The notes beneath the pieces are model-generated. The model was not told where the DNA came from. It did no database searches and worked only from the letters and a program-made list of their open reading frames with translations. The position numbers were made by a program, and so were the translations under genes. Shown here in pieces: positions 594 to 16,946 of a stretch of 24,000 nt of DNA. Location: positions 7,067 to 31,066 of the forward strand of contig CAZHXE010000001.1 of the NCBI GenBank assembly GCA_964536005.1. Direction: 5' to 3'. How positions within the stretch are numbered: the stretch's first letter is position 1; every line of letters starts with the position of its first letter. This stretch comes from an uncultured Candidatus Saccharibacteria bacterium (GTDB lineage Bacteria > Patescibacteriota > Saccharimonadia > Saccharimonadales > JBPEXE01).

Positions 594-768
594 AACATGT
601 ATTATACAGGTGTTACGAGCTTGCCTTAACTTCCGTATCGCTATAAATGCGTGGAGGGTTGGCGTAAAAGTTCACATAGAGAGTTAAATACTGCTAAACT
701 AAGCTCAGCATGAGCATTTATAAGCTTACACTCAGATTAACCGTGGCTCAGTCCGAAGCGAGCTGTTG

Positions 769-2379: not shown

Positions 2380-2518
2380 TTTCCACTCTATCCGTAGATG
2401 ATGCGCAGCGTAAAAAGGCCTTCGTTTGCCCGCTACTAATCTATGCAAATATCAGCACGGCTGCATGTAACCTAACCAAGCCGTGACACGCCTCAATATT
2501 GCCAGCAAAATATGATAA

Positions 2519-2558
2519 CAAAAAAGCCGCCGCTGCTAGGTGTGTGCGACGGCTTTTG
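2519..2558. terminator. candidate bidirectional intrinsic terminator between convergent genes
   Basis: AGCCGCCG (2525-2532) pairs with CGACGGCT (2547-2554) with one C/A mismatch and a 14-nt loop. An A-run lies upstream (2517-2525) and TTTT downstream (2554-2557), so it reads as hairpin plus U-tract on either strand. It sits between the stops at 2379 (+) and 2575 (-). Confidence 0.5.
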
Positions 2559-2574
2559 CATGCCTACCAGACCA

Positions 2575-5500
2575 CTATTGGAGCGTGACGTCGATCCAAT
2601 AGTTGGTATTGTTGAACGATGAGGTTGGGAATCCTCCACCGTAGCGGTAGACGCCGCCAGAAACGAGCGTCGAAAGCGGACCGTTGGCGATTGGGTTGGC
2701 CAGTCCAGCGCTCGTGAAGCTGTACAAGCCCGTTGGTGAACGGTACGAGGCTGTATATGTGGCTCCCGCTGTGATGTTTATAGGACTCGCGAACGTGGCG
2801 GTCTGCCAGCCACTGGCTGTTTCGTTGGCTGTTGTGGCTGTGCCAAGGGCAACACCGTTACTATCCCAGAGGGTCATTGTGTGCGACGTTAAACCATCAC
2901 TGGCACCACGGTAGTAGTGAATTTGGCTGATTGCGCCATTTTGGCTACTGGTGAACTTTATGCCTAGCTCAACATCGGCATCGGTGATGGTCGAGACTGT
3001 CTGCGGACTTGGTGCCCAGAAAGAGTATGTCGTCACACCAGCCGTGAATTGGCTGGTGTATGGAATGGCAAGTGCTACTCCGTTGGCATCTGTCACGGAT
3101 GTTGCAATTGACACAGAGTAGGTTTTGTTTGGAGTCAAAGCGCTACTAGGATCTATGACTATTGTATTGTTAGCTGGCGCGTAGCTAATGGTGGCTGCAA
3201 CCGGTGTTTGACCATCGAGCAGCTGAACATTGGCATTGTTGGCTGTGGCCGAATCCAGCGGTTCACTAAAGCTCACTTCAACATTCGTTTGTACATTCAC
3301 GCCCGTAGCATTATTTGTTGGGCTGGCACTGGTGACAATTGGCGCTGTAGTGTCTTGACCATAACTGGCAGTATATGTGCCGCTGGTAGTAGTGAACACT
3401 GCGTAGGACACGCCTTTAATTGTCTCGGTCGTAAAGCTAACGTTCTGGCCATCTTTTGCAAGGCTTAATAGCACACCGTTTTTACTAGAAAGTGGCATGA
3501 GGCCACGCATCATTGATCGGGCTTTCGCGTCGACCGTAGCGCTGAAGCTAAACTCTGAGCCATTCCATGACGAGTTTGTAAAGTATGAATTGTTGCGAGC
3601 ATCTGTCCAGTCGAGCATTTGTTGGCCAGAAACAAGCGGTACTCCCCTCGCCTTTGCCGATGCGACCAGCTGGCGGTCGAACTGGTCGGAGTAATCGTAG
3701 TGCGTACCAAACGCGCCGTAGTAGCCTTCACTGCCCAAAGCCCGATCGAGCAGTACGTTAATGTTTTGCGGGAAGGTCTGCCCGCTCTCATTAACGAGGT
3801 GTGAAGGCAACTGATAGGTGTCGATGAGCTTTCCGTCGAGATCGGCATAGCGCATATTCATACCCGACCCGGTCATAAAGCCCGGTCGGTTTTGCACCCA
3901 ACTGCCTGGCCAGTAGTAGTAATTGAGATCCTGCCTGAGGCCAACAGCCGCGCCAATCTTAGCCCCCTCTGCGTAGGTGCTCCAGGCGATACAATGAATT
4001 CGGTTTACGTGCTGTGCTGGCAAGCTGGTGTATTTGGCTTGGAAGTCGGCCAGCTCGCTTGCGTATGCATTGGCGAGTGATGTTGGCGTCCAATCGTTGC
4101 AGCCTGTGCTCGCATGTACGCCGAAGTCAAAGCCTTGGTTGTAGTATCCTAATGCCTGAGTGTCGGCTACAGGCGTGCTGGTGTAAATGAGAGAGGTTGA
4201 GCGAATACACTCCCAATCCTCTACAACGCAGCCTGGAGTGCTCTCGGCCAGTTGGTGATTGAGCGCGCTAACTGTACCAGTGGCGGTAGCATGGTCGTCG
4301 GCTACCATGACAACGACCGCCTTTTTGTTGTACGGGAAGTACGCGAGTTTTGGTAGCGGCTTGCTATCCTCGTTTACATCGGCGATGATGTTAGCCAGCA
4401 GGCGCTGCTGCTCATCGGCTTGTGGGATCATTACCTTATTGAGGTTAACGTAATCTGGTTGCACGTCGCCCACTTTAGCACCGTAGAACAAGTCATTCGG
4501 TCGGATTGGCGCGCTGCCGTCGCGCTCGTCGCCTGACCAAGCGGGATTACCCTGGTGTGTGTAAACAATCGATTTCGCTAAGTCGTAAGTAAAGGCTGCA
4601 GCTTGTCCACCGTTGACTCCAACGGAGCGGATTGTGACAGCTGGATTATTTGTAGTGGCTGTGGAGCTGCTGAATAGCGTGGCAACCGTCTGGGTGCCGA
4701 TCTGGGCTGTGTAGTTGTCGGCGCTGCCATGATATTGCATGGTCTCGCCCACTATGCCACTGCCGGGACTTTGACTGGTATTTACTTGCATGTAAGCGTC
4801 GCTCATGACGGATGCTTGGTCGGTTAGACCCAGCAAGTTTGCAAGTTTTTTGTCTGGGTGCATAGCAATGAGGTTGCCACCGTTGTTGACGTAATTGGTA
4901 AGTGTCGTCACTTGATTGTCGCTGAGCGCCATATCGCCGAGTAAAACGACATCGTATTGGCCAAGCAGCACGCTGTTGACGTCGGCAAGCTCAACGGTCT
5001 TGAATGAGTTGAGGCCCTCGGCGCGTAGAATTTCGCTGTAATATGCGCTAAACGGATTATCGTTGTCGGTAACGATCAAGATTGGTCCATCGTGGCCTTG
5101 CGAGAGTGGGTCTATCTCTGTTGCAGGGCCAGTCACAGTTGTAAAGTTCCAGCTGTAAGCGCTTGCCAGTGAGTTGCCCGCGATGTCTTTGACGCCCGTG
5201 CTGAGGCTTGCCTGGTAGCTCGTACCGGCATCCAGGGCGGCTTGTGGCACAATATTTATCGCGTTTGTACTGGTGTTGTAGCTAATGGACGAGGTTACCA
5301 CTGCCTGGGTCTGGGTATTAGTAAGCGTAACATTGGCGGTAGTTACCGTAGTCTCGTCGATTGGTTCGCTCATGAGCGCGGCGATGGTTGTGTCGGTGGC
5401 TACATTGGTAGCATTATTGCCTGGGATGACTTCGGTTACTGTCGGCTTGGTCGTGTCAGAGGTGTCGGCTACTAGTATATCTACCCAATAGTTAGAGGCA

Positions 5501-6834
5501 TTATAGCTTTGGCTTGGGAATCCACTCGCACCGTATTTATAGACACCGTTGCCACCGGAGACGCCGTTAGCCAGCGCGGATAAAATGCCACTCGTAACGG
5601 TGTTGTTGCTAAAATAGCTTTCGTTTACGGAGTAGCGGCCTTTTGGTGCATGATACGAAACTACGTAGGTTGTGTTGGCGGCAATCGCGACCGGTGATCC
5701 AAAATTTGCCGTCTGCCAGCCACTCGCTGTTTCGTTTGTGAATGTGACTGTTGCTAGCTTGTTGCCTGCGTTATCCCACAGGTTGCCTACGTGCGTACCG
5801 GTATTGGCGGTACCCTTATAAAACTTAAGCCCCACCACACTTGTTGCCTGTGAGCTCCTAAACTTCATACCCAATTCAACAGCGGCAGTGTCACTGTCGC
5901 TGAGTACTGCGGGCGTTGTAGTGTTTGGCCAAACGCTCGAGGTGCTGAGAGCTGTGTTATTGGTTGATATGGCGACTGGTGAGCTCGTTGCTGTGTTGCC
6001 AGCGGCATCTGTGGCCATGGCTGTGATAGTATGAACGCCATTTGGCAGAAGAGAACTATTCCAGGCAACCGAGTACGGGCTGGTTGTATCGGCGGAGCCC
6101 ACGTTATTGCCATCAACTTTAAATTGAACACTGCTAACACCAACGTTATCGCTGGCATTTGCTGCGAGGTTTATGGTGCCGCTCACTGAGGCGTTGTTAG
6201 CTGGACTTGTAACTGACACAGTTGGTGCCGACGTGTCGCTCGAATTGCTCGTTACTACATCTACCCAATAGTTGCTTTGGTTATAGCTTTGATTTGGGAA
6301 AGCAGAGCTTGAGCCGTATTTATAGACACCATTGCCGCCGTCGGTTCCGCTCTGTAAGGCTGTCAATGTGCCATTAGTGCGAGCTGACGCAAAATATCCT
6401 TCGGTGACTGAGTAATGGCCATTTGGCGCATAATAAGAAATTACGTAGGTTGTATCGGCGGCTATACCGATTGGGCTTGCAAAGCTGGCTTCTTGCCAGC
6501 CGCTGGCCGACTCACTGCCAAATGTGACAGTCGCAAGTTTGTTGCCGGCAGCGTCCCAGAGGTTGCCAACGTGTGTGCCGGTGTTAGCAGTACCCTTGTA
6601 AAATCGTAGGCCGGTGACGGTTGTGGCGACAGAACTTCTGAACTTCGTTCCTAGCTCTACTCCGCTAGTGTCGGGGTCGCTCAGAACAGCTGGCGTATCG
6701 GATGGCGCCCAAATGCTAAGTGCTCTAGATGACTTAGGAAATAAGACTGCAAAACTGCCAAATGACAGCAAGGCAGCCAGTGTAAAAATACTTAGCTTCT
6801 TGCTAAGGTGTTTTTTGCGCTGGCGCAATATCAT
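2575..6834 (-). CDS. giant secreted surface protein: 3x DUF4082-like modules, bacterial Ig-like domains, large central alpha/beta region
   Basis: The ORF-track entry 2575..6882 starts at GTG. The internal ATG at 6834 is preceded by AAAGGGG (SD) 6 nt upstream and gives a classic signal peptide, MILRQRKKHLSKKLSIFTLAALLSFGSFAVLFPKSSRA/LS. Three modules carry the signature ..VELG.KF.S...G.....YKG..NTGTH.G.LWD..G..LA..TF..E.ASGWQ...F..P......TYV.SY....G.YS.......NYWVD. They lie at approx. nt 6250-6720, 5475-5937 and 2578-3015 and match my recollection of DUF4082. Segments such as PTVTEVIPGNNATNVATDTTIAALMSEPIDETTVTTANVTL look like SbsA/Big_5-type Ig domains. Confidence 0.9.
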   Translation of the reverse strand: MILRQRKKHLSKKLSIFTLAALLSFGSFAVLFPKSSRALSIWAPSDTPAVLSDPDTSGVELGTKFRSSVATTVTGLRFYKGTANTGTHVGNLWDAAGNKLATVTFGSESASGWQEASFASPIGIAADTTYVISYYAPNGHYSVTEGYFASARTNGTLTALQSGTDGGNGVYKYGSSSAFPNQSYNQSNYWVDVVTSNSSDTSAPTVSVTSPANNASVSGTINLAANASDNVGVSSVQFKVDGNNVGSADTTSPYSVAWNSSLLPNGVHTITAMATDAAGNTATSSPVAISTNNTALSTSSVWPNTTTPAVLSDSDTAAVELGMKFRSSQATSVVGLKFYKGTANTGTHVGNLWDNAGNKLATVTFTNETASGWQTANFGSPVAIAANTTYVVSYHAPKGRYSVNESYFSNNTVTSGILSALANGVSGGNGVYKYGASGFPSQSYNASNYWVDILVADTSDTTKPTVTEVIPGNNATNVATDTTIAALMSEPIDETTVTTANVTLTNTQTQAVVTSSISYNTSTNAINIVPQAALDAGTSYQASLSTGVKDIAGNSLASAYSWNFTTVTGPATEIDPLSQGHDGPILIVTDNDNPFSAYYSEILRAEGLNSFKTVELADVNSVLLGQYDVVLLGDMALSDNQVTTLTNYVNNGGNLIAMHPDKKLANLLGLTDQASVMSDAYMQVNTSQSPGSGIVGETMQYHGSADNYTAQIGTQTVATLFSSSTATTNNPAVTIRSVGVNGGQAAAFTYDLAKSIVYTHQGNPAWSGDERDGSAPIRPNDLFYGAKVGDVQPDYVNLNKVMIPQADEQQRLLANIIADVNEDSKPLPKLAYFPYNKKAVVVMVADDHATATGTVSALNHQLAESTPGCVVEDWECIRSTSLIYTSTPVADTQALGYYNQGFDFGVHASTGCNDWTPTSLANAYASELADFQAKYTSLPAQHVNRIHCIAWSTYAEGAKIGAAVGLRQDLNYYYWPGSWVQNRPGFMTGSGMNMRYADLDGKLIDTYQLPSHLVNESGQTFPQNINVLLDRALGSEGYYGAFGTHYDYSDQFDRQLVASAKARGVPLVSGQQMLDWTDARNNSYFTNSSWNGSEFSFSATVDAKARSMMRGLMPLSSKNGVLLSLAKDGQNVSFTTETIKGVSYAVFTTTSGTYTASYGQDTTAPIVTSASPTNNATGVNVQTNVEVSFSEPLDSATANNANVQLLDGQTPVAATISYAPANNTIVIDPSSALTPNKTYSVSIATSVTDANGVALAIPYTSQFTAGVTTYSFWAPSPQTVSTITDADVELGIKFTSSQNGAISQIHYYRGASDGLTSHTMTLWDSNGVALGTATTANETASGWQTATFASPINITAGATYTASYRSPTGLYSFTSAGLANPIANGPLSTLVSGGVYRYGGGFPTSSFNNTNYWIDVTLQ

Positions 6835-6853
6835 GCTATACCCCTTTATTGTG

Positions 6854-7144
6854 TTACATAAAGTAGTATATATTACAGACACATCTGTTGGAAAGTGCTA
6901 GCGCTATCCCACGAGCATTGTTGAATCCCTTCGCATTGCTATAGCGACAGATGACTTTGTTTTCGTAAACTTCTGGTTCTTGTAGTGTTATCTGGCCTAG
7001 GTCTTTGGTGTCAATGATTTTGTGGGTTTTGTATCTTTTTGTCCATTTGGTGCTAAACCTGCCCTCGGCGCGATCCCTAAAGCGGGCTTCCGGTGTGCGG
7101 TCTTTGTACCATATAGGTCTTCGTCCCTTGGTGTAGTTTGGCAA
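6854..7144 (-). CDS. hypothetical basic 96-aa ORF (doubtful)
   Basis: The ORF starts at TTG and is Lys/Arg-rich (PNYTKGRRPIWYKDRTPEARFRDRAEGRFSTKWTKRYKTHK...). Its 3' end overlaps the leader/promoter region of the giant gene. I see no SD and recognise no family. It fills an otherwise empty 300-bp gap, so it could be a gene remnant. Confidence 0.2.
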   Translation of the reverse strand: MPNYTKGRRPIWYKDRTPEARFRDRAEGRFSTKWTKRYKTHKIIDTKDLGQITLQEPEVYENKVICRYSNAKGFNNARGIALALSNRCVCNIYYFM

Positions 7145-7184
7145 AAGCTAATCGATAAAATTGGCGGTCGGCACGTACTTACGC

Positions 7185-8525
7185 TTACCTCTGCCTAATA
7201 CCAACTGGACCGCCATCAGAGGCGCCAGTTATGCCAGGTGAATTTGCTGCAAGCTTAAAACCTTCCCAAGTGGTTGGGTTTGACCCACCTTCAAACACGG
7301 GCACACCGCTGAAATTTTGTCCACTCACGCCCGAGCGCAACATGTTGTTGCGATTAACTGCGGCAGTAGAGCTGTTTTGCAGACTCACTACGTAGGCAAC
7401 GTTGTCATACACTTGTGTACCAGTACCGACCGGGTCAGACGTCTTTCGGCTGAGTATTATATGACCACAAGGCGCATAGTCGCAGGTGGTGCGGTACACC
7501 AGCGTGTTGTAGCGGACAATTGAATTCGTGTCGGAATAGAGCTCTATCCCCCATCGCCCACTTTGGATGTCTACAACGTTGTTTTCTATGAGTACGTTAT
7601 CCACTCCATCGTATGCAACGATTCCGTCGGCGACATTGTGAATATAGTTACCTCGTACGATTGAACCAGTCGCGCCGATGAGCTGGATTGGATCGGAGTG
7701 TGGAGAGGTATCCCACCACCCCGTGCAAACCGCGCCATGCTCCGCGATATCATCGAATTCGTTATTGATAATGTTGACACCCACACCTGACTGAATACCG
7801 TCCTTATGTCCACCTTTGAAAAGAGAGTTCCTAACGGTTACGCCGGAGTGTGTTGCTTGAGAATATGGAAAATGTATGGCGCCAGCTGGCACGTCTGCAC
7901 AGGCGTAGGTGCCAGATCCTGAACTTGGGAAGTTAATATTGATGTGAGTGTTGCTATCAAGCAAAATATTGGAATTTGTGACCCCATCTATGGTGAGCGA
8001 AGTGGTGAAAGCAGTGTTCTTGATGGTTATGTCCTTTGCGCCGTTCAGGATTGTGCCGCCCGCTCCCGACAGCCCATCAAGCGTAAATCCGTTGTCGCCG
8101 GTAGTAAAGTTAAACAACATGGTTGCCGTAGCACCGGCCGCTGCCTTGATGGTTATCGCCTTGTTCGTGCCAGCGAATGTGCCGTAATTGCCACTCGCCA
8201 GACATATGGTCTGACCAACAGTGGCAGCAGTAATCTGCGATGCCAGGGTGGTTGCATTTGAGGCATTCAGATCGCACGTCCCGCCTGTGCTGACGGGGTT
8301 GAATTGTAAAAAGGATGAGCCAGAGGCCGTGCCATCAGACGCAACTGATGTATCGTTGGCACTGACATATGTTTCACCTTCGGCCACCTTTGCATTAGGT
8401 GACGTTGCCGCAAAAGAACGATACAGGATAATTGATCCTACGGCCGCAAACGCAACGGCAAAAAGAAGTGGCAGACCGCTGTTTGGCCGCTGGAAATTTA
8501 GAGATTTAGAGAAAAGCTTTTTCAT
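7185..8525 (-). CDS. secreted right-handed parallel beta-helix (pectate-lyase-fold) protein
   Basis: It has an ATG start and an N-terminal signal anchor (LPLLFAVAFAAVGSIILYRSFAA), then the shared PNAK..ASGSSFLQF module. Repeated beta-helix rungs follow: ITIKNTAF, ILLDSNTHI, VTVRNSLF, VNIINNEFDDI, IVRGNYIHNVADGI, VLIENNVVDI, IVRYNTLVY (PbH1-like repeats). Confidence 0.85.
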   Translation of the reverse strand: MKKLFSKSLNFQRPNSGLPLLFAVAFAAVGSIILYRSFAATSPNAKVAEGETYVSANDTSVASDGTASGSSFLQFNPVSTGGTCDLNASNATTLASQITAATVGQTICLASGNYGTFAGTNKAITIKAAAGATATMLFNFTTGDNGFTLDGLSGAGGTILNGAKDITIKNTAFTTSLTIDGVTNSNILLDSNTHININFPSSGSGTYACADVPAGAIHFPYSQATHSGVTVRNSLFKGGHKDGIQSGVGVNIINNEFDDIAEHGAVCTGWWDTSPHSDPIQLIGATGSIVRGNYIHNVADGIVAYDGVDNVLIENNVVDIQSGRWGIELYSDTNSIVRYNTLVYRTTCDYAPCGHIILSRKTSDPVGTGTQVYDNVAYVVSLQNSSTAAVNRNNMLRSGVSGQNFSGVPVFEGGSNPTTWEGFKLAANSPGITGASDGGPVGIRQR

Positions 8526-8703
8526 GTTCTTTTCTATTTATTACTGTAGACAATAGTAACAGTATAAGCGTAATTGATTTGAAATTAAACGAGCCTTGTT
8601 CCTGTTGTGCTTGCTCATGCATACATCATATCCCAAAGGTACTGCACTTCCTGAAATTGCTCCTGGACTCTTAGCATGACGGATACGCTTAATGCTATTT
8701 GCT

Positions 8704-8732
8704 GTATATAGTTTATAATGTAAACTATATAC
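8704..8732 (+). promoter_or_regulatory. perfect 12-bp inverted repeat (candidate MarR operator) overlapping a TATAAT -10 box
   Basis: GTATATAGTTTA (8704-8715), spacer TAATG, TAAACTATATAC (8721-8732). The right arm ends one base before the MarR ATG at 8733. A consensus TATAAT lies at 8714-8719, only 14 nt from the ATG, and there is no SD in between. Confidence 0.6.
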
Positions 8733-9185
8733 ATGAAACCAATTTCCGAATTCTCTACATACCGAACAGGAATTCTGCAGGCGAAGGCGTACAGAAATCT
8801 TAAAAACTTTATGTACAGAACACTCAAAAAGCATGATTTAACATCCACGCAGTGGTCTATACTGGGCGTTATTAGCGATGAAACAAAAAATGGTGGAATC
8901 CGTGTCAGTGACCTGGCGGATATGCTTGATGTGAAGCGTTCATTTATAACCAATATGGTAAAAAAACTGATCGAAAATGGATACGCCGAGCATGCTTATG
9001 ACGAAGATGACGGACGAGTAAGGCTTGTGATCGCTACCGACAAAGCGCACCTAAAGGTAGTTGAAATTGAGCGCTACATGCGCAAAGAGATGCGCGAGTG
9101 GCTAAGTGATATCGAGCATCAAGATCTGGTTAGATACATCATGGTTCTGGATAAAATCTCACTTAAAAACAACACTCATAGTTAA
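8733..9185 (+). CDS. MarR-family transcriptional regulator
   Basis: 150 aa. LTSTQWSILGVISDETKNGGIRVSDLADMLDVKRSFITNMVKKLIENGYAEHAYDEDDGRVRLVIATDKA is a typical MarR winged-helix core: an LT..Q..L start, then the recognition helix, then the DxRxxxxxLT-like wing. Confidence 0.9.
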   Translation: MKPISEFSTYRTGILQAKAYRNLKNFMYRTLKKHDLTSTQWSILGVISDETKNGGIRVSDLADMLDVKRSFITNMVKKLIENGYAEHAYDEDDGRVRLVIATDKAHLKVVEIERYMRKEMREWLSDIEHQDLVRYIMVLDKISLKNNTHS

Positions 9186-9263
9186 GCTGGGTTAACCATA
9201 TTTTACTTAACTAAGTTAACTATCTATACTTACTCGTAGTTAGTAAATAACGAGAGGAAGTAT

Positions 9264-9893
9264 ATGACACATTCAGTAATCGGGCTTGCAATCTTAGGAT
9301 TAGTTATCGGAGGCGCTGGCGGCTATGCCATTGGTAGCAGCATGAATGACGACTCCGAGCAGGACACGATGTCGCAACAAAATGAGAATCAGAGCATGTC
9401 ACAGGACAGCGACGGAGTGACCGTAGGTGGCGCCAAAATGGTTCGTTCCCTCGACATTGTAGAGAACGCAGCCAAAGCAAGTAACGTAACTACGGTGGTT
9501 GGTCTGGTCGAGCAAGCTGGGCTTGTCGATACGCTCAAGGGTGTGGGTCCATTTACGGTATTTGGCCCAAACAACGCCGCATTCGAAGCGGTTGACCCAG
9601 ATGTACTGGCTACAGTCGCAGGCGACAACGCGCTACTAAGAACGGTCCTTACCTACCACGTAGTACCAGGTACATACACATCTGCCGACTTGCGTGCACT
9701 CGCAAACAGTGGCGATAGCGTGAAAACTGTACAAGGTACCGAGCTGTCATTCAAGATCGTTGATGGTAACCTTGTTGTCGTAGACAAAGTTGGCCAAGAA
9801 GTAATGATCGAGACTGCCGACGTCATCTCGTCAAATGGCGTAACTCACGTCATCAAGAACGTGCTTCTGCCAGTTGACCCATCGACTCTTTAA
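9264..9893 (+). CDS. fasciclin (FAS1) domain protein, membrane-anchored/secreted
   Basis: SD GAGAGGAAG lies upstream of the ATG, and there is an N-terminal TM segment (VIGLAILGLVIGGAGGYAIG). FAS1 signatures are present: TVFGPNNAAFEAV, LTYHVVPGTYTSADL, SNGVTHVIKNVLLP. Confidence 0.9.
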   Translation: MTHSVIGLAILGLVIGGAGGYAIGSSMNDDSEQDTMSQQNENQSMSQDSDGVTVGGAKMVRSLDIVENAAKASNVTTVVGLVEQAGLVDTLKGVGPFTVFGPNNAAFEAVDPDVLATVAGDNALLRTVLTYHVVPGTYTSADLRALANSGDSVKTVQGTELSFKIVDGNLVVVDKVGQEVMIETADVISSNGVTHVIKNVLLPVDPSTL

Positions 9894-9913
9894 AGAGTAA
9901 AACCGTGAATTGG

Positions 9914-9944
9914 GCTCAGCGCGATGAGTGCTGGGCTCTTTTCT
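9914..9944 (+). terminator. candidate intrinsic terminator after the fasciclin gene
   Basis: GCTCAGC (9914-9920) pairs with GCTGGGC (9930-9936) as a 7-bp stem with one G-U and a 9-nt loop. TCTTTTCT follows at 9937-9944. Confidence 0.45.
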
Positions 9945-9988
9945 AAATAAAACTCATATTAAAACCCACCAAGGGAAAGGACGCGTAA

Positions 9989-11689
9989 ATGCTGTTGTTA
10001 CTCGGAGCGTTCATAGCTGGCATACTCACTGTGCTGGCACCGTGCGTATTGCCTCTGTTACCGATCATCATTGGAGGCTCGGTTTCAGGAGATGAAGCTG
10101 ACAAAAAACGACCACTATATATCACTGCTTCGCTTGCCCTGTCGTTGTTAGTCTTCACCCTACTGCTGAAGGCAACGACAGTGCTCATTGGTGTTCCGCC
10201 AGAGTGGTTTGCGTACATATCCGGCATTATCATCGTAGCCCTTGGCATATTCACGCTCTTCCCTTCTTTATACGCAACATTTTTAGCCAAAGTGGGCATT
10301 GAGTCTAAAGCCCTTAGCTTCTTAAGCAAAGGTCAGAAACAATCTAACCCAATGTTTGGCGCCATACTTACTGGTGCGGCCCTCGGACCGGTTTTTTCAA
10401 GCTGCAGCCCAGTCTATGGCTACATACTCGCCACTGTTTTACCGGTGAATTTCTCGCTGGCCATGCTGTACATGAGCGCCTACATCTTAGGACTGAGTTT
10501 TGTGTTGCTCCTGATTGGCTATTTCGGGCAGCGCTTTATTAAAAAAATCAGTTGGATGAGTAACCCTAAGGGTGCGTTTCAGCGTCTTATTGCTGTTTTG
10601 TTTATTATTGTTGGTCTGATGGTCTTCACTGGGCTTGATAAGGACTTTCAGGCCTTTATCTCGCGCAACACGCCGTTTAATATCGATGCGCTGAGCGCCA
10701 AATTAATTCCAGCCAGCCAAAGAGAGTACAAAGACGGCGAACTCCTTAACGTAGACCCCTACCCTGCCCCAGAATTTGCTGGGCTCGAGGATTGGATTAA
10801 CAGTGAACCTCTGACACTAGAGAGTTTGCGGGGACAAGTTGTACTGGTCGACTTTTGGACCTACAGTTGCATTAACTGCGTGCGCAATAACCCGTATATT
10901 GAAGGTTGGTATCAGCAATATAAGGACGACGGCTTTACGGTCATCGGTGCGCACGCGCCGGAGTTTGCGTTTGAGCGTAACGTTGAAAATGTCCAAAAGG
11001 CCGTGAGGGATCAAAACATAAGCTACCCGGTTGCGCTCGATAACGACTTCAGCACATGGGGCGCGTTTGAAAACCAGTTTTGGCCAACCTACTACCTAAT
11101 CGACGCCCAAGGAAACGTGCGACGAATCCATAGCGGCGAGGGCGAATATCGAGAGTCCGAGCAAGCTATTCGACAACTTTTGACCGAGAACGGCGCGTTC
11201 TTGTCGGACGACGAGATTACAACTGAAGGAGACGCCGTTGACTACATTACTAAGCAGCAAACACCCGAGACGTATCTTGGCCTAAAGCGAGCCAGCAACT
11301 TTGCAAGCAAGGAACCACTTGGCAGCGGCGGCCCATTTACGTCACCGGCGAAGCTTGCTTCAAACCAATGGAGCCTAAGCGGCAAATGGGACGTGGGTAA
11401 TGAAACGATCACATCGTCAGAAGACTCGGCCAAGCTTGCATTTAATATTCGTGCCAAAGCGGTGTATGTGGTCGCGTCTTCAGAGTCTGGCAATCAGATA
11501 AAAGTTTTGGTTAATGGCCAGCCAGCGAATGGCAGCAACGCAGGCAGCGACGTCAAAAATGGCGCCGTAACGGTGCAGGAAGCAAGGCTGTATCGGCTGG
11601 TTGAGTTTGACCAATTTCAGGAGTCAATTAATTTGGAGCTAACCGTCCCTAAGGGCGTTTCGCTTAATGTATTTACGTTTGGAAGTTAA
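9989..11689 (+). CDS. dipZ: DipZ-like fusion: CcdA/DsbD-type thiol-disulfide transporter + thioredoxin-like domain + C-terminal beta-rich domain
   Basis: The N-terminal polytopic part has the two conserved membrane Cys (LTVLAPCVLPLLP and GPVFSSCSPVYGY). The thioredoxin-like part contains VVLVDFWTYSCINCVRNNPYI (CxxC) and ...FWPTYYLIDAQGNVR. A ~150-aa C-terminal extension follows. This three-part architecture matches mycobacterial DipZ as I recall it. Confidence 0.85.
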   Translation: MLLLLGAFIAGILTVLAPCVLPLLPIIIGGSVSGDEADKKRPLYITASLALSLLVFTLLLKATTVLIGVPPEWFAYISGIIIVALGIFTLFPSLYATFLAKVGIESKALSFLSKGQKQSNPMFGAILTGAALGPVFSSCSPVYGYILATVLPVNFSLAMLYMSAYILGLSFVLLLIGYFGQRFIKKISWMSNPKGAFQRLIAVLFIIVGLMVFTGLDKDFQAFISRNTPFNIDALSAKLIPASQREYKDGELLNVDPYPAPEFAGLEDWINSEPLTLESLRGQVVLVDFWTYSCINCVRNNPYIEGWYQQYKDDGFTVIGAHAPEFAFERNVENVQKAVRDQNISYPVALDNDFSTWGAFENQFWPTYYLIDAQGNVRRIHSGEGEYRESEQAIRQLLTENGAFLSDDEITTEGDAVDYITKQQTPETYLGLKRASNFASKEPLGSGGPFTSPAKLASNQWSLSGKWDVGNETITSSEDSAKLAFNIRAKAVYVVASSESGNQIKVLVNGQPANGSNAGSDVKNGAVTVQEARLYRLVEFDQFQESINLELTVPKGVSLNVFTFGS

Positions 11690-11710
11690 AAAATTTAAGA
11701 GAGGAATCAA

Positions 11711-11959
11711 ATGGAAGTAACCATGTATTCAACCAAGTTGTGCGCCGCGTGCCATATGCTTACAAAATGGCTGGAAGACAAGTCGGTCGACTACACAAAG
11801 AAGCTGGTAGATGAAGACGAGCAAGCCATGGAAGAGTTCATGTCACTGAATGACGGCGCAATTGGTGTGCCTTTTACGGTCATAACCAACGAAAGTGGAG
11901 TGCATAAAATTACTGGGTTTGATAATGCTAGGTTGGGAGAGTGTTTGGCTTTGGGTTAG
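11711..11959 (+). CDS. glutaredoxin/NrdH-like small redoxin
   Basis: 82 aa with SD AGAGGAA upstream. MYSTKLCAACHMLTKWL carries a CxxC motif at the start of helix 1. ...GVPFTVI... is the cis-Pro region typical of the glutaredoxin fold. Confidence 0.8.
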   Translation: MEVTMYSTKLCAACHMLTKWLEDKSVDYTKKLVDEDEQAMEEFMSLNDGAIGVPFTVITNESGVHKITGFDNARLGECLALG

Positions 11960-12023
11960 GTTGCTTGAAGTGTGGGGCTGCGCGCATCTTTGTCAGAACA
12001 AACATTTTATGCTGTAGTAGCTA

Positions 12024-12278: not shown

Positions 12279-13259
12279 TTACTTTTTCTTAGATGCTATT
12301 TTTAGAGTGAATTGTTGGACGTCTTGGCCACGCAGCTCGGGATAGATGCTCATTTGAAATATCCAATTTAAAATAAGAAAACGTGTCAGCTCTCTCAGGT
12401 GCTTAACTAGAGAGTTAAGCGCGTTAACATCATCCTCAAACTCTTTGATGGATCTGCCGAGCTTATATTTATGTAGGCCATCTTTCTTGGGTATGTGCTT
12501 GGCTGTCGGATAAAGGCCATTATGAATACTTCCGTTTCGGATGCGATACTTACAGGCGTCGATGACCGCCTTGTATTGCTTTCTGTTGGTGTCTGACTCA
12601 ATTTGAGAAAATAATTGTTGGTCAAACCATTTGTTGTTATTGATCGAACTATGTTTTAAGCCTTGCCTTCCACAATCATTACAGCTTACGAAGTTTGCGC
12701 ATTCAGGCGGCGCGCCTAATAGGGTCTCGATGATCGTAAAGTAGACAACAACCTGCCAGTAGCTCACATCTATATTCCTCAAAGAGAACGGTTTCAGGCT
12801 GCCTGCCACAAAATAATTAATTATCGACGTGTAGACCCTTACGTCTACTTTTAAAAATAGCTTGTATAGCTCCTCATAACTGATGGAGTTTTGGGTCAGA
12901 GCATCAAATACCTCGTCTAACACCTTTTCCTGGTCAAGGTATCTGTCATGGGCGACATGTTCACGTTGAACCTTTGCAAGCTCAGGGTTAAGCACATACG
13001 CCTGAGGGTTAGCATAGTAATCTACAAGCTCTACAGAATCAGTAAGCAAAGCATGAAAGTATAGCCATTTTTCATATTCATCGTTGTCCTTAATATCCAC
13101 TGCACGTATTGTTCTGCCAAAGTGCATACTGCCATCTTTTTCGACTTTTACATCAGGCCCGGGAGTCAACGAAAAGTACGGCAGATCTATGCGATTTTTC
13201 GGGGGGAGCCAGGTAGGGATAAAAAACTTACTACTTTTTGTCGATTCGTCATCGTTCAT
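12279..13259 (-). CDS. hypothetical protein with HEPN-like Rx4H motif (candidate Abi-type RNase)
   Basis: 326 aa with SD GAGG 7 nt upstream of the ATG. R241-N-G-S-I-H246 (nt 12522-12539, CGA AAC GGA AGT ATT CAT on the minus strand) fits the HEPN Rx4-6H signature with the common polar residue after Arg. It is embedded in KYRIRNGSIHNGLYP and preceded by a helical YFTIIETLLG segment and a CNDC pair. I recognise no other family. Confidence 0.75.
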   Translation of the reverse strand: MNDDESTKSSKFFIPTWLPPKNRIDLPYFSLTPGPDVKVEKDGSMHFGRTIRAVDIKDNDEYEKWLYFHALLTDSVELVDYYANPQAYVLNPELAKVQREHVAHDRYLDQEKVLDEVFDALTQNSISYEELYKLFLKVDVRVYTSIINYFVAGSLKPFSLRNIDVSYWQVVVYFTIIETLLGAPPECANFVSCNDCGRQGLKHSSINNNKWFDQQLFSQIESDTNRKQYKAVIDACKYRIRNGSIHNGLYPTAKHIPKKDGLHKYKLGRSIKEFEDDVNALNSLVKHLRELTRFLILNWIFQMSIYPELRGQDVQQFTLKIASKKK

Positions 13260-13441
13260 ACTGAATACCTCGAAGTTTCATTTAAGGTGATGTTATATAA
13301 CAGTTTAGACCAGTCAAACAACAATGTGCTACTTCATGAAATATCGGGAGCTGTGCACTCTATTGTTGGCTGCAATAGGGCTTCAATTTGCTCAGAATAA
13401 CCAAGTAAAGACATCATCACAACAATGGCACATATGCTTGT

Positions 13442-13580
13442 TGATACCAAGGAGAAAGCGGCTTCGCCTTCTCCGCTTCGCTCCATCGAACTCCCTTGAC
13501 GGAGTTCGATGCTCATCGACATGCACCACGAAGAAAGCCTACCATGTGGTGAGCTATTATCGTTGTGAAATACCATGTAT
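13442..13580 (+). repeat. structured direct repeat, copy A (more degenerate copy)
   Basis: It aligns by hand with 15523-15662, with 12 mismatches over the first 126 positions. There are identical blocks of 36 nt (13447-13482) and 28 nt. Hairpins: 13451-13474 (GGAGAA-A-GCG GCTT CGC-C-TTCTCC), 13487-13508 (CGAACTCC cttgac GGAGTTCG) and 13524-13567 (long hairpin with two mismatches relative to copy B). It lies in the 437-bp gap between the SEFIR gene stop and the HEPN-motif gene start. Confidence 0.85.
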
Positions 13581-13696
13581 CGAATTGGAATTGTATCCGT
13601 ACTGAGCTAAACGAATCGCGCACCGTTCTATCATCCGAATCTGTAGTCAGAAGTTGCGAACTGGTACGGGTGTAGAGTGGAACCGTGGATATTGGA

Positions 13697-15220
13697 TTAA
13701 GGTAGTTCAGCGATACGATCTGGCAACATCTTTGTAAATAAAGGAACGTTGAAGTTCCAACCAGCATTGTAGTTAATTTTTGATGTTACTTCGACTGCGG
13801 CTTCATACGCTTTTTGTAATTCGCCCACAGACTTCATGCCAAACATAGCTGAAATCTCGTCTGCACGTGATTTTGATATAAGCTCACCTAGTGGGTCAAT
13901 CAATTCCTCACTTCTATGGCTGTATACGGACAAGCGCGGGAACCACCAGTTATACCTGTTGTCGGGAAAATTGAACCTAGTCAGTAGGTACAGCAAACTG
14001 TCAGCATTGCGTAATTCGTCAAAGTCTAAGCCATCAAACTTAACTGCGTGCTCTTTTTGTATGTCTGCCGCAACACTGACACGGTTGAGGTTCAGCCTAC
14101 TATTTCTATAGTCATCCAGTGTTCGCATGTGCTGGTAGAAATCTGTAAAGGTCACAGCACGTAATTCGCCAAGGTGTGTTTTATAGAAGTAAGTCCTGTT
14201 AATCAGATTATGCACTACGCTGAAACGTCTGTGTTTGACTAACAAAGCCACAATACCCGTTGCAAGCTCGTGAACAACAAAACCGACGTTCTCGTAGTCG
14301 CTGTCACGCCAGGAGTTCACTCCAGGCAGCGGTGCTTGCTTGGCTTTAGCTGAGGTTAATAGTTTATCTATTTCTTCGGTCAATTTTTTATCATCGAGCT
14401 GACCATTCATAAGTAGCCCATCCAGTTCGTTAAGCATTGCGTTGGTGTATGGCTGCATAGATTCAATGCTCTCTAGTACTTTTTCGTCCACAGGTGTGTC
14501 GCCAGCTCCAACTTTCCTCAGCTTATCGAGTGCTTGAAGAAATGTTGCAGTAACTGCCTGGAGTCCAGAACGTGGTTTCTCTGCGTCAACCTGCTGCTCG
14601 GCTGTCTTTGGCAGCTTTTCGGCTGGATGCTTAGCTGTGCCTGTGAATGTTGGGATAGATCCAAGTACTGGCTTTACATACTTTGGCTGATTGTAGATGT
14701 GCCTAATAAGGTCATCGAAGTTTGCGTCAAACTGCGATTCGTCTGTGAAGTCGATGTAATGCCGTGATTTCATATACGTTGGTAAGCACGGTTTACCGTC
14801 CTGATTACGCTCAAATACTAGAGGAACTACTTTTGTCTGGTCAATCTTTTCATACACCTCAGGGCTAATCAGCTGCGTCTCCGTGCCTACGCCACCTCTT
14901 CGAGCATCTGCTTTTTCGGCATACTTTTTGTCCGCTATGACGAGTACGTGAGTGACGGCTTTGTCTGTCACTGATTGCTCCATAAATTTGTTCAGTTCGT
15001 GTCCTGGCTTGTTGTCGTAGATGTCAAGAATTACATCAATACCCTTGCCAAGCAATCTATCAGCAAACAACCTAACTCGCTCCTTGTGTTCTGGGTCGGA
15101 CCAGGCGTAAGACAAGAATGCCTTAGGGTGCTCGGTGCTACCCTGTGCGATTGACTTTAGCGCACCATCATCTGGTTTTAGTTTCTTATCATCATCTGTC
15201 TTATTAGGTTTGTTAGCCAT
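13697..15220 (-). CDS. SEFIR/TIR-like domain protein with uncharacterised ~320-aa C-terminal domain (candidate anti-phage NADase-type effector)
   Basis: 507 aa. Residues ~33-175 read AFLSYAWSDPEHKERVRLFADRLLGKGIDVILDIYDNKPGHELNKFMEQSVTDKAVTHVLVIADKKYAEKADARRGGVGTETQLI...VVPLVFERN...HYIDFTD. This matches my recollection of the bacterial SEFIR/TIR (flavodoxin-like) signature: F.SY.W, GIDV.LD, FMEQS, GGVG.E. The C-terminal part is helical-looking and carries no motif I recognise. Confidence 0.8.
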   Translation of the reverse strand: MANKPNKTDDDKKLKPDDGALKSIAQGSTEHPKAFLSYAWSDPEHKERVRLFADRLLGKGIDVILDIYDNKPGHELNKFMEQSVTDKAVTHVLVIADKKYAEKADARRGGVGTETQLISPEVYEKIDQTKVVPLVFERNQDGKPCLPTYMKSRHYIDFTDESQFDANFDDLIRHIYNQPKYVKPVLGSIPTFTGTAKHPAEKLPKTAEQQVDAEKPRSGLQAVTATFLQALDKLRKVGAGDTPVDEKVLESIESMQPYTNAMLNELDGLLMNGQLDDKKLTEEIDKLLTSAKAKQAPLPGVNSWRDSDYENVGFVVHELATGIVALLVKHRRFSVVHNLINRTYFYKTHLGELRAVTFTDFYQHMRTLDDYRNSRLNLNRVSVAADIQKEHAVKFDGLDFDELRNADSLLYLLTRFNFPDNRYNWWFPRLSVYSHRSEELIDPLGELISKSRADEISAMFGMKSVGELQKAYEAAVEVTSKINYNAGWNFNVPLFTKMLPDRIAELP

Positions 15221-15226
15221 AGTTAT

Positions 15227-15255
15227 ATTATCTCAGCTGTTGCGAACCATACCAA
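15227..15255 (-). promoter_or_regulatory. candidate sigma70-type promoter giving a leaderless SEFIR mRNA
   Basis: The minus strand reads TTGGTA (15255-15250), a 17-nt spacer, GATAAT (15232-15227), ATAACT, then the ATG at 15220. The -10 box ends 6 nt before the start codon and no SD is present. Confidence 0.4.
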
Positions 15256-15522
15256 GCATTAGCGTGATAATCTTGTAGAGTCCTTTCAGAGACTATAAGT
15301 TTGATGCACTACCATGAGGCATTATTTCAATGCTGATATGGCTAATGGATTCATAGTCATAATAAGATTAAAACATTAACTGGTTAGAGTAGTAAATATT
15401 TCATGCTCTATTATGAATCATATATATTCAGAGCCGCCAATATCAAGTTACAGCCCAAGTAAAGATTGATCATGGATTTGACGGTCTGCTGAACAACTGC
15501 TCCAAATTTCGATTTTCACTGG

Positions 15523-15662
15523 TGATTCCAAGGAGAAAGCGGCTTCGCCTTCTCCGCTTCGCTACGCCGAACTCCCTTGACGGAGTTCGATGCTCGTCGA
15601 CAAGCACCACGAAAAAAGCCCACCGTTTGGTGAGCTATTTTCGTGGTGAGCCCACGGGGTAT
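15523..15662 (+). repeat. structured direct repeat, copy B (better-paired copy), directly upstream of the HKD nuclease gene
   Basis: Same element as 13442-13580. Hairpins: 15532-15555, 15568-15589 (8-bp stem) and 15605-15648. The last is CACCACGAAAA AAGCcCACC gttt GGTGaGCT A TTTTCGTGGTG, with an 11-bp outer stem plus an inner stem. It ends ~70 nt before the probable nuclease start at 15731. Confidence 0.85.
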
Positions 15663-15712: not shown

Positions 15713-16237
15713 ATGAGCTGGAGGTCTTTGATGAAGTTATTTAGGAGCCATAGGAGCACGCGTATTGCTGATGATTTACTTAGATCTACTCTATTTGATG
15801 AGGAAAGTTTCTTCAAGATTATGAGTAGTGACATTAAGTCAGCACAAAAAGAAATTATAATTGAAAGTCCATTCGTAACCATACGTAGAGCATCTGAAAT
15901 TAGTAAGCTCTTTGAAAGGCTGCATGAAAAAGGCGTTAGTGTAATCGTGCACACTCGCAATCCCGAACACCACGATGGAAACCTAAAATTCCAATCTGTA
16001 CGAGGGATCGCTATTCTCCGTGAGTCTGGAGCAAAAGTAAAGATTCATGATGATATGCGACATCGTAAAATATGCATAGTAGACCGGCGTATTCTGTGGG
16101 AAGGAAGTTTAAACATGCTTTCACACAGCAGCAGTAAGGAAATAATGAGAAGAACCGAGTCCGAAGTATTATCCAAGCAGATGTTAAGATTTGCGAAACT
16201 CCACAAAAGTTTGAATGGTATACTACAGATATTATGA
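15713..16237 (+). CDS. single-HKD phospholipase-D-superfamily nuclease (Nuc-like)
   Basis: H117-R-K-ICIV-D-RRILWE-G-S-L-N134 (nt 16061-16114) is a perfect HxK(x)4D(x)6GSxN motif. The ~170-aa size and single motif are as in the homodimeric Nuc/BfiI-type nucleases. The likely true start is the second ATG at 15731 (MKLFRSH...), which has GGAGG (15720-15724) 6 nt upstream. Confidence 0.88.
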   Translation: MSWRSLMKLFRSHRSTRIADDLLRSTLFDEESFFKIMSSDIKSAQKEIIIESPFVTIRRASEISKLFERLHEKGVSVIVHTRNPEHHDGNLKFQSVRGIAILRESGAKVKIHDDMRHRKICIVDRRILWEGSLNMLSHSSSKEIMRRTESEVLSKQMLRFAKLHKSLNGILQIL

Positions 16238-16437
16238 CTGGCTACAAACCAACAAAAAATGATGTGCAGTTGTTGATTAACTGGCTAAAAGAGCACGATC
16301 CCGAAAACGCCAATGAAGAGGTAGCCAAACAGATGTTGGTTGATCTTAAGCTTAGTTTTCGCGCCATTGGTCTGAGTGATCCCGATTCTCTTGAAGATTT
16401 TTATCAATCTTTTATAGCTAATCGTACAAAAGACTAA
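16234..16437 (+). CDS. hypothetical 67-aa acidic protein, translationally coupled to the HKD nuclease
   Basis: There is an ATGA overlap: the ATG at 16234 overlaps the nuclease TGA at 16235-16237. The sequence MTGYKPTKNDVQLLINWLKEHDPENANEEVAKQMLVDLKLSFRAIGLSDPDSLEDFYQSF is helical-looking and Asp/Glu-rich, with no recognised family. Confidence 0.6.
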   Translation: MTGYKPTKNDVQLLINWLKEHDPENANEEVAKQMLVDLKLSFRAIGLSDPDSLEDFYQSFIANRTKD

Positions 16438-16649
16438 AACGGTAAAATGTCCGAGGACTCGATCTTCAAAGCCTTAGTTATTCTGTAAAGAGAATCGAGA
16501 GAAGGTAGTGAATCTCCCCTTTCTAGCCGCGCATAGTAATTCTTGTTTAAATCTGCCTTGTCGGCAAGTTGTGCCTGTGTAAGCCCGCTGTTGCTTCTAG
16601 CTTTTTTTATGTTCGCGGCTATAGCAGCTTGTTGTTTGCTGTTGATCAT
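16434..16649 (-). CDS. XRE-family helix-turn-helix transcriptional regulator
   Basis: 71 aa. GLTQAQLADKADLNKNYYARLERGDSLPSLDSLYRITKALKIESSDIL is a canonical HTH_3 (Cro/C1) domain. Its 3' end overlaps the convergent 67-aa ORF by 4 nt. Confidence 0.9.
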   Translation of the reverse strand: MINSKQQAAIAANIKKARSNSGLTQAQLADKADLNKNYYARLERGDSLPSLDSLYRITKALKIESSDILPF

Positions 16650-16652
16650 GTT

Positions 16653-16946
16653 TTATCTTCTCTCTAAGTTCTGTAAAATTTCACGATGACGCATGCGATC
16701 TCGTTTTTCTTTGCGTTGGCTTCTTCTGAGCAACCTGTAAGGTATCAGGAAAATGCCAAATAACATGTACCAGCCAATCACGAATAGCCAAGCGATTAAT
16801 ATAAGCGCTAGTGCTATCGGCACAAACAAAAGATACTTCAAAAGTATATTTTTAACATCTGTAATCTTCCATATTCGTGCAGCACTACCACTGAAGGACA
16901 GCGGTGAGCTTATAACCACCTTTTCACTTGGTAATTTATTGGGCAT
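16653..16946 (-). CDS. small 2-TM membrane protein, upstream partner of the XRE regulator
   Basis: 97 aa with an ATG start. It has two hydrophobic helices (LLKYLLFVPIALALILIAWLFVIGWYMLFGIFLI) followed by a strongly basic tail (RRSQRKEKRDRMRHRE). Its stop lies 3 nt before the XRE ATG. Confidence 0.6.
   Translation of the reverse strand: MPNKLPSEKVVISSPLSFSGSAARIWKITDVKNILLKYLLFVPIALALILIAWLFVIGWYMLFGIFLIPYRLLRRSQRKEKRDRMRHREILQNLERR

Follow-up and report, generated by a model that had tools for sequence, protein, structure and literature searches.

Two direct repeats of about 130 bp flank a bSEFIR defence gene in a 24,000-nucleotide stretch of contig CAZHXE010000001.1 (the whole stretch is called the window below), which, judged by its gene set, appears to come from a Patescibacteria/Saccharibacteria-like bacterium. 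Each copy of the repeat folds as three successive hairpins (H1, H2 and H3), and the question raised by this locus is whether such a module is a structured RNA or leader, an insulator between defence genes, or a mark left by the arrival of the gene between the copies. The analysis indicates that the pair is most likely a familiar kind of genome scar and not a new RNA, and the more specific reading, that the copies are att-type (attL/attR-like) junction repeats of a 2,081-bp bSEFIR islet without an integrase, is given an even chance of being right. Of the three readings offered in an earlier note on this DNA, the one that took the copies for att-like scars of a recombinase-less SEFIR cassette is the best supported, through the repeat edge at a TCACCA terminus, the bounds of an island in relatives and the reuse of an insertion point beside a PLD-family nuclease gene.

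Repeat edges and probable insertion junctions

A repeat search of the window detected one two-copy direct family, whose members, copy A and copy B (Table 1), are 130 nt long and spaced by 2,081 bp. The two copies are identical at 117 of 130 positions (90%), leaving 13 mismatches, and their two longest identical runs measure 36 nt and 28 nt, together 64 nt. The right edge of the similarity is sharp and lies directly past ...CGT(T/G)GTG, and the leftward similarity decays with three indels (2, 18 and 7 nt) back to CCAAGTAAAGA at ~13401 and ~15455. The ~130-bp direct repeats with a 2,081-bp period, the identical blocks of 36 nt and 28 nt and the weaker upstream similarity that had been described by hand alignment are all real, the last being broken by the indels, and the earlier coordinates have a left bound 3 nt off and a right bound ~12 nt too far. 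When read on the minus strand with the edge marked by a slash, the sharp edge of copy A is ...TATTTCACAA/CGATAAT, which is the exact end of the bSEFIR flank, and that of copy B is ...GGGCTCACCA/CGAAAAT.

The bracketed gene was identified as bSEFIR by PADLOC (6.2e-92 over residues 28-473), with Pfam matches to TIR_2 (1.2e-14) and SEFIR (1.5e-10), and bSEFIR is a described single-gene defence system (bioRxiv 10.1101/2022.05.11.491447). Homologues with 66-75% identity were recovered in five other contexts, none of which contains the 130-nt repeat. The gene and a non-coding 3′ flank of ~125 nt are conserved in the window and in the compared loci L041, L036 and L037, and all four end at TCACCA and then diverge. 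The loci L036 and L037, which encode an identical bSEFIR protein, have in common an 11.45-kb island (175-11627 in both, 98.7% identical) that begins with a large serine recombinase gene, has bSEFIR as its final gene and also holds a methyltransferase and a ResIII helicase, a tyrosine recombinase and an MgsA_C protein. The left boundary of this island reads GGTCACCA, the right one G(G/T)TCACCA. Its left junction in L037 is the 3′ end of a tRNA-Glu gene, and the open reading frame (ORF) of the island recombinase runs across the junction, there into the antisense strand of the tRNA and likewise in L036. Islands that target tRNA 3′ ends carry a copy of the 3′ portion of their target. Since the bSEFIR flank ends at the right junction of a bounded island, the flank represents the right end of an integrative island, with TCACCA as the junction.

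The flank itself (13569-13696 in the window, 11498-11622 in L036 and 2091-2215 in L041) is conserved about as well as the gene among homologues of 66-72% identity, and a TTCCA.TC..ATAC-like motif occurs in it twice, at a distance of ~95 nt. The flank may be a recombinase-binding arm of the island, or a small RNA or ORF linked to bSEFIR. A tRNA-fragment origin of the flanks was tried and rejected, the similarity to tRNA-Glu being non-significant (P 0.1-0.4), and so was a remnant of the C-terminus of a serine recombinase gene, for which tblastn was negative.

The other junction lies beside the PLD gene, a homologue of which (56-59% identical) heads the type IV secretion system (T4SS) cluster in L045-L047 and L052. 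The DNA upstream of the PLD gene differs from genome to genome (L045, L048, L050 and L052 compared), and in the window, L045, L048, L049 and L052 the conserved part of the PLD-upstream block opens with the CACCA that is present in copy B. At this point L045 carries the PLD block and an H3-type hairpin with no cassette, which suggests an empty-site-like state. In L048 it is a Hachiman island (1339-7776; HamA and a helicase) that borders on this CACCA; it also encodes a phage Rep-O-like protein and a 567-aa serine recombinase, whose ORF runs across the junction, as in L036 and L037. The segment at this site is accordingly variable in relatives, and the edge of the repeat coincides with the island terminus or core, TCAC(C/A)A. 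A second adjacency of the two gene families was seen in L035 (5302-8442), a locus that has no T4SS genes and in which homologues of PLD (44%) and bSEFIR (68%) are divergent neighbours; this may be a coincidence or a functional pairing.

The two copies also differ in how they vary between strains. A second, near-identical assembly (Logan SRR14271362, locus L034) was compared with the window over 13.3 kb; it confirms copy A in full and copy B in its left half. The right half of copy B, with its join to the PLD gene, recurs in contigs of two sequencing runs (L043 and L044), and no single Logan contig covers all of copy B. Just 2 nucleotide differences were found in the 13.3 kb, at 13467 and 13564, both inside copy A, a placement expected by chance about once in 10,000; one of them brings copy A closer to copy B and the other takes it further. 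Copy B showed zero differences among three assemblies. The strain differences, together with the damage to copy A, fit a displaced and unconstrained copy A that is decaying and a copy B that is intact. The Logan contigs of SRR14271362 and SRR14271363 end or begin at 15564 and 15585 within H2 of copy B, with a 22-nt overlap; these breaks could come from additional copies or variants present in the sample or from a dropout of sequencing at the palindrome, and a simple mixture of A/B recombinants does not account for their positions.

A course of events may be proposed from these junctions. Along the minus strand the locus would be laid out as the PLD block ending in ...TCACCA, copy B (H3-H2-H1), ~300 nt with a promoter region, bSEFIR, its flank ending in ...TCAC(C/A)A, copy A and then an orphan gene. 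The islet, with bSEFIR as its sole cargo, would have been inserted at the TCACCA site directly upstream of the PLD gene, and the repeated module would be the DNA that natively follows this insertion point, namely H3, whose 5′ arm includes the CACCA core, and then two short palindromes. The incoming element probably brought its own 90%-similar version of the module, and after insertion the intact copy B would again have stood beside the PLD promoter region, the original target-side copy A being displaced by 2 kb and left to decay. A sharp edge at the core and a gradual decay at the other side would be expected when an element carries a diverged copy beside its attachment site. The islet might be a deletion remnant of a larger, L036-type island or a satellite moved by enzymes acting in trans, and, as a by-product, the direct repeats might allow the cassette to be deleted or re-circularised through homologous recombination or a recombinase in trans. 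We infer that the insertion was site-specific rather than a Campbell-type homologous crossover, which would yield an identical product if its partners were two versions of the module, and likewise which copy was island-borne and that H3 terminates transcription.

Hairpins of the module and their counterparts

The three consecutive hairpins that had been proposed for each copy were all recovered by folding, and all four strand/copy combinations folded better than every one of 200 dinucleotide shuffles, with z values of -3.8 to -6.3 as DNA and -5.0 to -7.7 as RNA. H1 is of 10-4-10 form, and H3 consists of 20-nt arms around a 4-nt loop. Minus-strand folds are stronger (-39.1 vs -34.2 kcal/mol as DNA, -74.6 vs -58.8 as RNA) because one H1 position and one H3 position are G.U on that strand and A.C on the plus strand, two positions being too small a basis for assigning the functional strand. 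The damage to H3 in copy A had been put at two disrupting changes and one that preserves pairing, which is too mild, as 4 of 19 pairs are broken on the minus strand of the window sequence. With its 11-6-11 arrangement in copy A, H2 has the geometry of a tyrosine-recombinase core or an operator, and H1 and H2 could be protein-binding sites; neither palindrome was found in the locus of any relative.

On the minus strand, H3 of copy B presents an 8-bp stem (5 GC pairs) followed by TTTTTCGTGG (T6), with an A-tract on the 5′ side, and is terminator-like; the likeness is weaker on the plus strand, and in copy A both the stem and the T-run are damaged. Judged by its sequence, H3 is best read as a bidirectional intrinsic terminator hairpin, typical of the lineage, that separates the T4SS promoter region from the upstream DNA. 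A hairpin of the same design with 19-bp arms (ACCATTTTAAAAGCCCCAC TTGC GTGAGGCTTTTAAAATGGT) stands at the same point in L045, 81 nt before the PLD start codon (82 nt in the window), in a region that is structured (z -5.5 and -7.5). Past the right island junction of L036 there is a 20-bp-arm hairpin, CACCAAGTAAAAGCCTCAGTC GAAA GACTGGGGTTTTTACTTGG, matched by a covariance model at E 0.005, and beyond it a patchy similarity to the rest of the repeat (GTAGCGAAGCG, GGGATCACCA), in which H1 and H2 are not kept as hairpins and which folds no better than shuffles (z ~0). Hairpins with arms of ≥13 nt are few, with just 11 in ~148 kb of these genomes, of which three are of the ACCA...TGGT (H3) type. Stem positions 6-9 of this type in three genomes read CGAA/TTCG, TTTT/AAAA and AGTA/TACT, pairing being kept with both sides changed, and the same terminator design occurs at other gene ends in related genomes. 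The search with a covariance model built from the two copies, which the earlier note had recommended, was made in 13 related loci (model R1) and gave nothing convincing except H3 in L036/L038. The idea that the copies insulate neighbouring transcription units is supported only for H3, which is of terminator type and has a counterpart at the same place upstream of the PLD gene in L045.

At 15639-15659, shortly before the PLD gene, the plus strand can also form an alternative small hairpin (CGTGG TGAGC CCACG), followed by TATTTTCT. It shares bases with both the TCACCA junction and the 3′ arm of H3, and could compete with H3.

Several other identities were searched for and set aside. An unfiltered covariance-model search detected no further repeat copy in the window. 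No match to Rfam 15 at gathering score was obtained in the window, with nothing at the repeats at E ≤10 and only chance-level matches elsewhere, and ARAGORN reported no tRNA or transfer-messenger RNA (tmRNA) in the window, so a known RNA was rejected. Coding was rejected as well; several frames are open, largely because of base composition, yet one minus-strand frame has a stop in copy B, and a shared 29-codon minus-strand ORF has 4 non-synonymous vs 1 synonymous change and diverges afterwards. A 93-aa ORF over copy A, compared with 1.84 billion representative proteins (phmmer), returned one repetitive, unrelated match only. A template/variable pair of a diversity-generating retroelement was rejected, as there is no reverse transcriptase, both copies are intergenic and the 13 differences fall on all four bases in A as well as in B rather than being adenine-specific. 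An integron attC site was rejected too, since no R'' (RYYYAAC) or R' (GTTRRRY) boxes are present on either strand of copy B and its flanks, and the element forms three separate hairpins instead of one bulged hairpin, with no Phage_integrase match in the window. The earlier remarks that neither copy looks coding and that the element was not recognised as a tRNA, tmRNA or attC site are in agreement with these results. BLAST matches in phage and plasmid collections were none. The H2 20-mer was absent from 185,579 GTDB genomes apart from one chance match (Mesorhizobium), a degenerate H1 pattern hit 31 loci in JGI metagenomes with H1 alone matching, exact H1 and H2 cores were lacking in IMG/VR, and the element has no terminal inverted repeats.

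Weighing the explanations

A number of observations weigh against junction repeats and have to be set beside the evidence of the edges. No recombinase, integrase, TnpA or TnpB gene was found in the islet or in the other scanned ORFs of the 24-kb window, an element-encoded recombinase being present only in the larger islands of relatives, and no tRNA was found at the insertion target of the window. The flanks of the islet resemble tRNA-Glu only in GGTTCCAATCC and GTCACCA, and shuffled sequences align locally just as well (P 0.1-0.4). The ends of the L036 island have just a 9-nt identical core and a diverged hairpin, and a 130-nt repeat of 90% identity is far longer than the att core of that island family needs. 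The serine recombinases of L048 and L036 are only 25% identical, and shared site specificity is therefore not expected; neither a true empty site nor an excised circle was seen in a close relative; and the TCACCA hexamer is frequent, with 15 occurrences in the window vs 10.8 expected. H1 and H2 together hold none of the 13 differences between the copies (P ~0.002 for predefined hairpins, with a post-hoc run test giving P 0.057), and a pure scar leaves this perfect conservation unexplained. The 4-nt linker that joins H1 and H2 differs at 3 positions between the copies, and this combination looks more like constraint on both palindromes than like a gene-conversion tract.

The leading alternative, which is on balance unlikely, dispenses with any site-specific step and takes the module for a functional intergenic terminator or regulatory element 5′ of each of two consecutive minus-strand genes, bSEFIR (copy B) and the orphan (copy A), in the manner of the promoter-early stem-loop (PeSL) motifs of T4-like phages; it would act as an insulator between neighbours, with cassettes gained or lost by homologous recombination between the copies. 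Each copy does lie upstream of a minus-strand gene and is followed on that strand by promoter-like hexamers (15446-15417 and 13317-13290, outside the repeat and differing between copies), H3 is terminator-like, phages offer a precedent (PMC2839356, PMC4122927), and selection fits the perfect H1 and H2 with a linker changed at 3 of 4 positions better than gene conversion does. However, there are only two copies and no promoter within the repeat is common to both; the terminator is degraded where it would be needed (copy A, after bSEFIR) and perfect where no upstream minus-strand gene ends (copy B). That H1 and H2 are not kept in the homologous region of L036, which folds no better than shuffles (z ~0), speaks against such a module as well, and the coincidence of the repeat edge with the island terminus of relatives is left unaccounted for. 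A distinctly improbable account makes the hairpins recombination sites for an enzyme in trans, either with H2 as a Xer/dif-like core or with an attC-like or IS200/IS605-like single-strand substrate, the bSEFIR unit being actively mobile. The direct orientation around a single promoter-plus-gene unit, the recombinase-core geometry of an H2 with the same sequence in both copies, the wobbles in H1 and H3 that favour the better-folding minus strand, and an Xer-sized tyrosine recombinase gene ~1 kb upstream of bSEFIR in L036 (with two small genes between) all point in this direction, but the attC boxes are missing, the hairpins are three and not one bulged structure, no integrase, TnpA or TnpB gene lies in the window, H2 is missing from every relative's locus, the strand inference is based on just two wobble positions, and the ~60 nt of degenerate similarity past the hairpins would be superfluous for a minimal site. 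A bolder form of the same thought, that H1-H2-H3 is a folded-DNA site for a trans-acting recombinase capturing single defence genes upstream of Patescibacteria T4SS clusters, is regarded as a long shot; if it were true, the locus would represent a platform for cassettes in the Candidate Phyla Radiation, integron-like but with a remote integrase, and the perfectly conserved H1 and H2 would be its protein-recognition elements.

It is also very improbable that the copies are paralogous small-RNA genes, or that copy B serves the PLD/T4SS operon as a structured 5′ leader (attenuator), copy A being a redundant duplicate. The fold is strong and significant, the plus-strand copy B ends 82 nt before the PLD start codon, the alternative small hairpin with its T-run overlaps the 3′ arm of H3 (15639-15659), and L045 is likewise structured here (z -5.5, -7.5). 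Against these stand the lack of any Rfam match even at E ≤10, the lack of a promoter common to both copies (TTGACG sits in the 18-nt insertion of copy B alone), no covariation support with 3 near-identical sequences to align, the absence of conservation of H1 and H2 in sequence and structure in L045, L052 and L036, the decaying H3 of copy A, and L048, which lacks the H1-H2-H3 module upstream of the same PLD block. The first reading of the earlier note, a paralogous non-coding RNA or leader, is not supported, on the same grounds (no Rfam match, no shared promoter, decay of H3 in copy A, H1 and H2 not kept in L036). The least credible explanation is a generic dispersed repeat, resembling repetitive extragenic palindromic (REP) sequences or miniature inverted-repeat transposable elements (MITEs), that is present twice here by chance; the element is hairpin-rich, non-coding and ~130 nt long, and the Logan assemblies of two runs break within copy B at identical positions, possibly through extra copies or variants, but it has no terminal inverted repeats, no third copy in the 24-kb window, no occurrence of its H1 and H2 cores in GTDB (one chance match aside) or IMG/VR, JGI matches to H1 alone, and no ORF-level trace among 1.8 billion representative proteins.

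Genes of the window and known systems

The features on which the preferred reading, att-type junction repeats, is built and the genes next to them are collected in Table 1.

Table 1. Positions of the repeat copies, their hairpins and edges, and the adjoining genes in the window.
Feature	Position	Strand	Basis
Copy A: H1, H2 and degraded H3; just outside the 3′ terminus of the bSEFIR islet	13439..13568	-	
Copy B: H1, H2 and intact H3; within the islet, at its PLD-proximal end	15520..15649	-	
Degraded continuation of copy A (CCAAGTAAAGA...)	13400..13438	-	
Degraded continuation of copy B, with 2, 18 and 7 nt inserted as compared with copy A	15455..15519	-	
TCACAA (TCACCA in strain L034) at which copy A ends sharply; the conserved bSEFIR 3′ flank finishes with it	13563..13568	-	
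TCACCA at which copy B ends sharply; the conserved PLD-upstream block begins with it (TGGTG on plus)	15644..15649	-	
H1, copy A	13451..13474		folding
H1, copy B; 10-4-10, one non-Watson-Crick position (G.U minus, A.C plus)	15532..15555		
H2, copy A; perfect 11-6-11 palindrome	13484..13511		
H2, copy B; perfect 8-6-8 palindrome CGAACTCC CTTGAC GGAGTTCG	15568..15589		
H3, copy A; degraded, 4/19 pairs broken, T-run interrupted	13524..13567	-	
H3, copy B; 20-nt arms, 4-nt loop, A-tract and T-tract flanks	15605..15648	-	
bSEFIR defence gene, 507 aa, N-terminal TIR_2/SEFIR domain	13697..15220	-	Pfam, PADLOC
Conserved non-coding 3′ flank of bSEFIR, putative right-end arm of the islet	13569..13696	-	alignment with L041, L036, L037
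PLD-upstream block, homologous to blocks in L045, L048, L049, L052	15650..15730	+	
PLD-family nuclease gene, first of the T4SS cluster; 168-aa start with GGAGG ribosome-binding site	15731..16237	+	
326-aa orphan gene adjoining copy A, outside the islet	12279..13259	-	

Downstream of the PLD gene follow genes for a VirB2-like pilin, TrbL/VirB6, PrgI/VirB3, VirB4 and an M23 peptidase, a gene set that matches the relaxase-less T4SS described for Patescibacteria (bioRxiv 10.1101/2025.01.22.634366). On the other side, the 326-aa orphan has no homologue but itself among 5.8 billion clusters. The interval from the PLD gene to the pilin gene (16234-16946) contains a 67-aa gene and two minus-strand genes, the first of 97 aa and the next for a 71-aa HTH_3 protein (C-protein-like, PADLOC 3e-13), and these two look like a toxin-antitoxin or controller pair; relatives carry a 164-aa gene at this interval, and L052 has an AAA_13 insertion at the same spot. 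Further away, an AT-rich, operator-looking palindrome with 18-nt arms (8698-8738) overlaps the start of a MarR-family gene (8733-9185), and a 1,435-aa protein (2575-6882) carries three DUF4082 domains with Big_5 and Big_7 and has internal DNA repeats with a period of ~780 nt (families D2, D5 and D20). The G+C content falls from ~0.50 to ~0.42 at ~11500-12000 and remains low through the bSEFIR and T4SS region.

Read as a pair of junction repeats, the locus amounts to a minimal, recombinase-less bSEFIR islet placed at a defined junction beside a T4SS cluster. The same few bases upstream of the PLD gene would then have received two or more unrelated defence cargos (bSEFIR in the window, Hachiman in L048), and may be a landmark for locating defence islands in these reduced genomes. 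No new RNA class or defence mechanism is revealed, and the earlier remark that such repeats would be unusual beside a TIR-family effector does not apply, defence genes at island termini being ordinary.

Among known systems, the attL/attR repeats of integrative islands are similar in that they are direct repeats around horizontally acquired cargo with one edge sharp at a short core and the other decaying, in that the element-borne copy would restore the target-adjacent sequence and the displaced copy would degenerate, and in that the core in relatives is a tRNA-Glu 3′ end on an island that encodes recombinases. The islet differs in having no recombinase and no tRNA at its target, in a site-specific step that is putative, and in a repeat of 130-200 nt with 90% identity compared with the 9-nt core of the 11.45-kb island. 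The PeSL motifs, composite terminator/promoter elements of T4-like phages (PMC2839356, PMC4122927), are likewise short, hairpin-bearing intergenic direct repeats around small variable genes, an arrangement through which homologous recombination can insert or delete cassettes; in contrast, the present repeats reside in a bacterial chromosome, are known in just two copies, have no identified promoter within them, and possess about twice the length and three hairpins. Integron attC sites, including arrays of clusters of attC sites lacking integrases (CALIN), share the structured imperfect palindromes (57-141 nt), the direct orientation, the single-gene cassettes and the lack of a nearby integrase, whereas the repeats described here have no R''/R' boxes, three independent hairpins and a cassette with its own long 5′ region. 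H3 resembles bidirectional intrinsic terminators in its GC-rich stem with an A-tract and a T-tract that extend the helix, and is set apart from them by a predicted, unusually long 20-bp arm that includes the CACCA junction motif.

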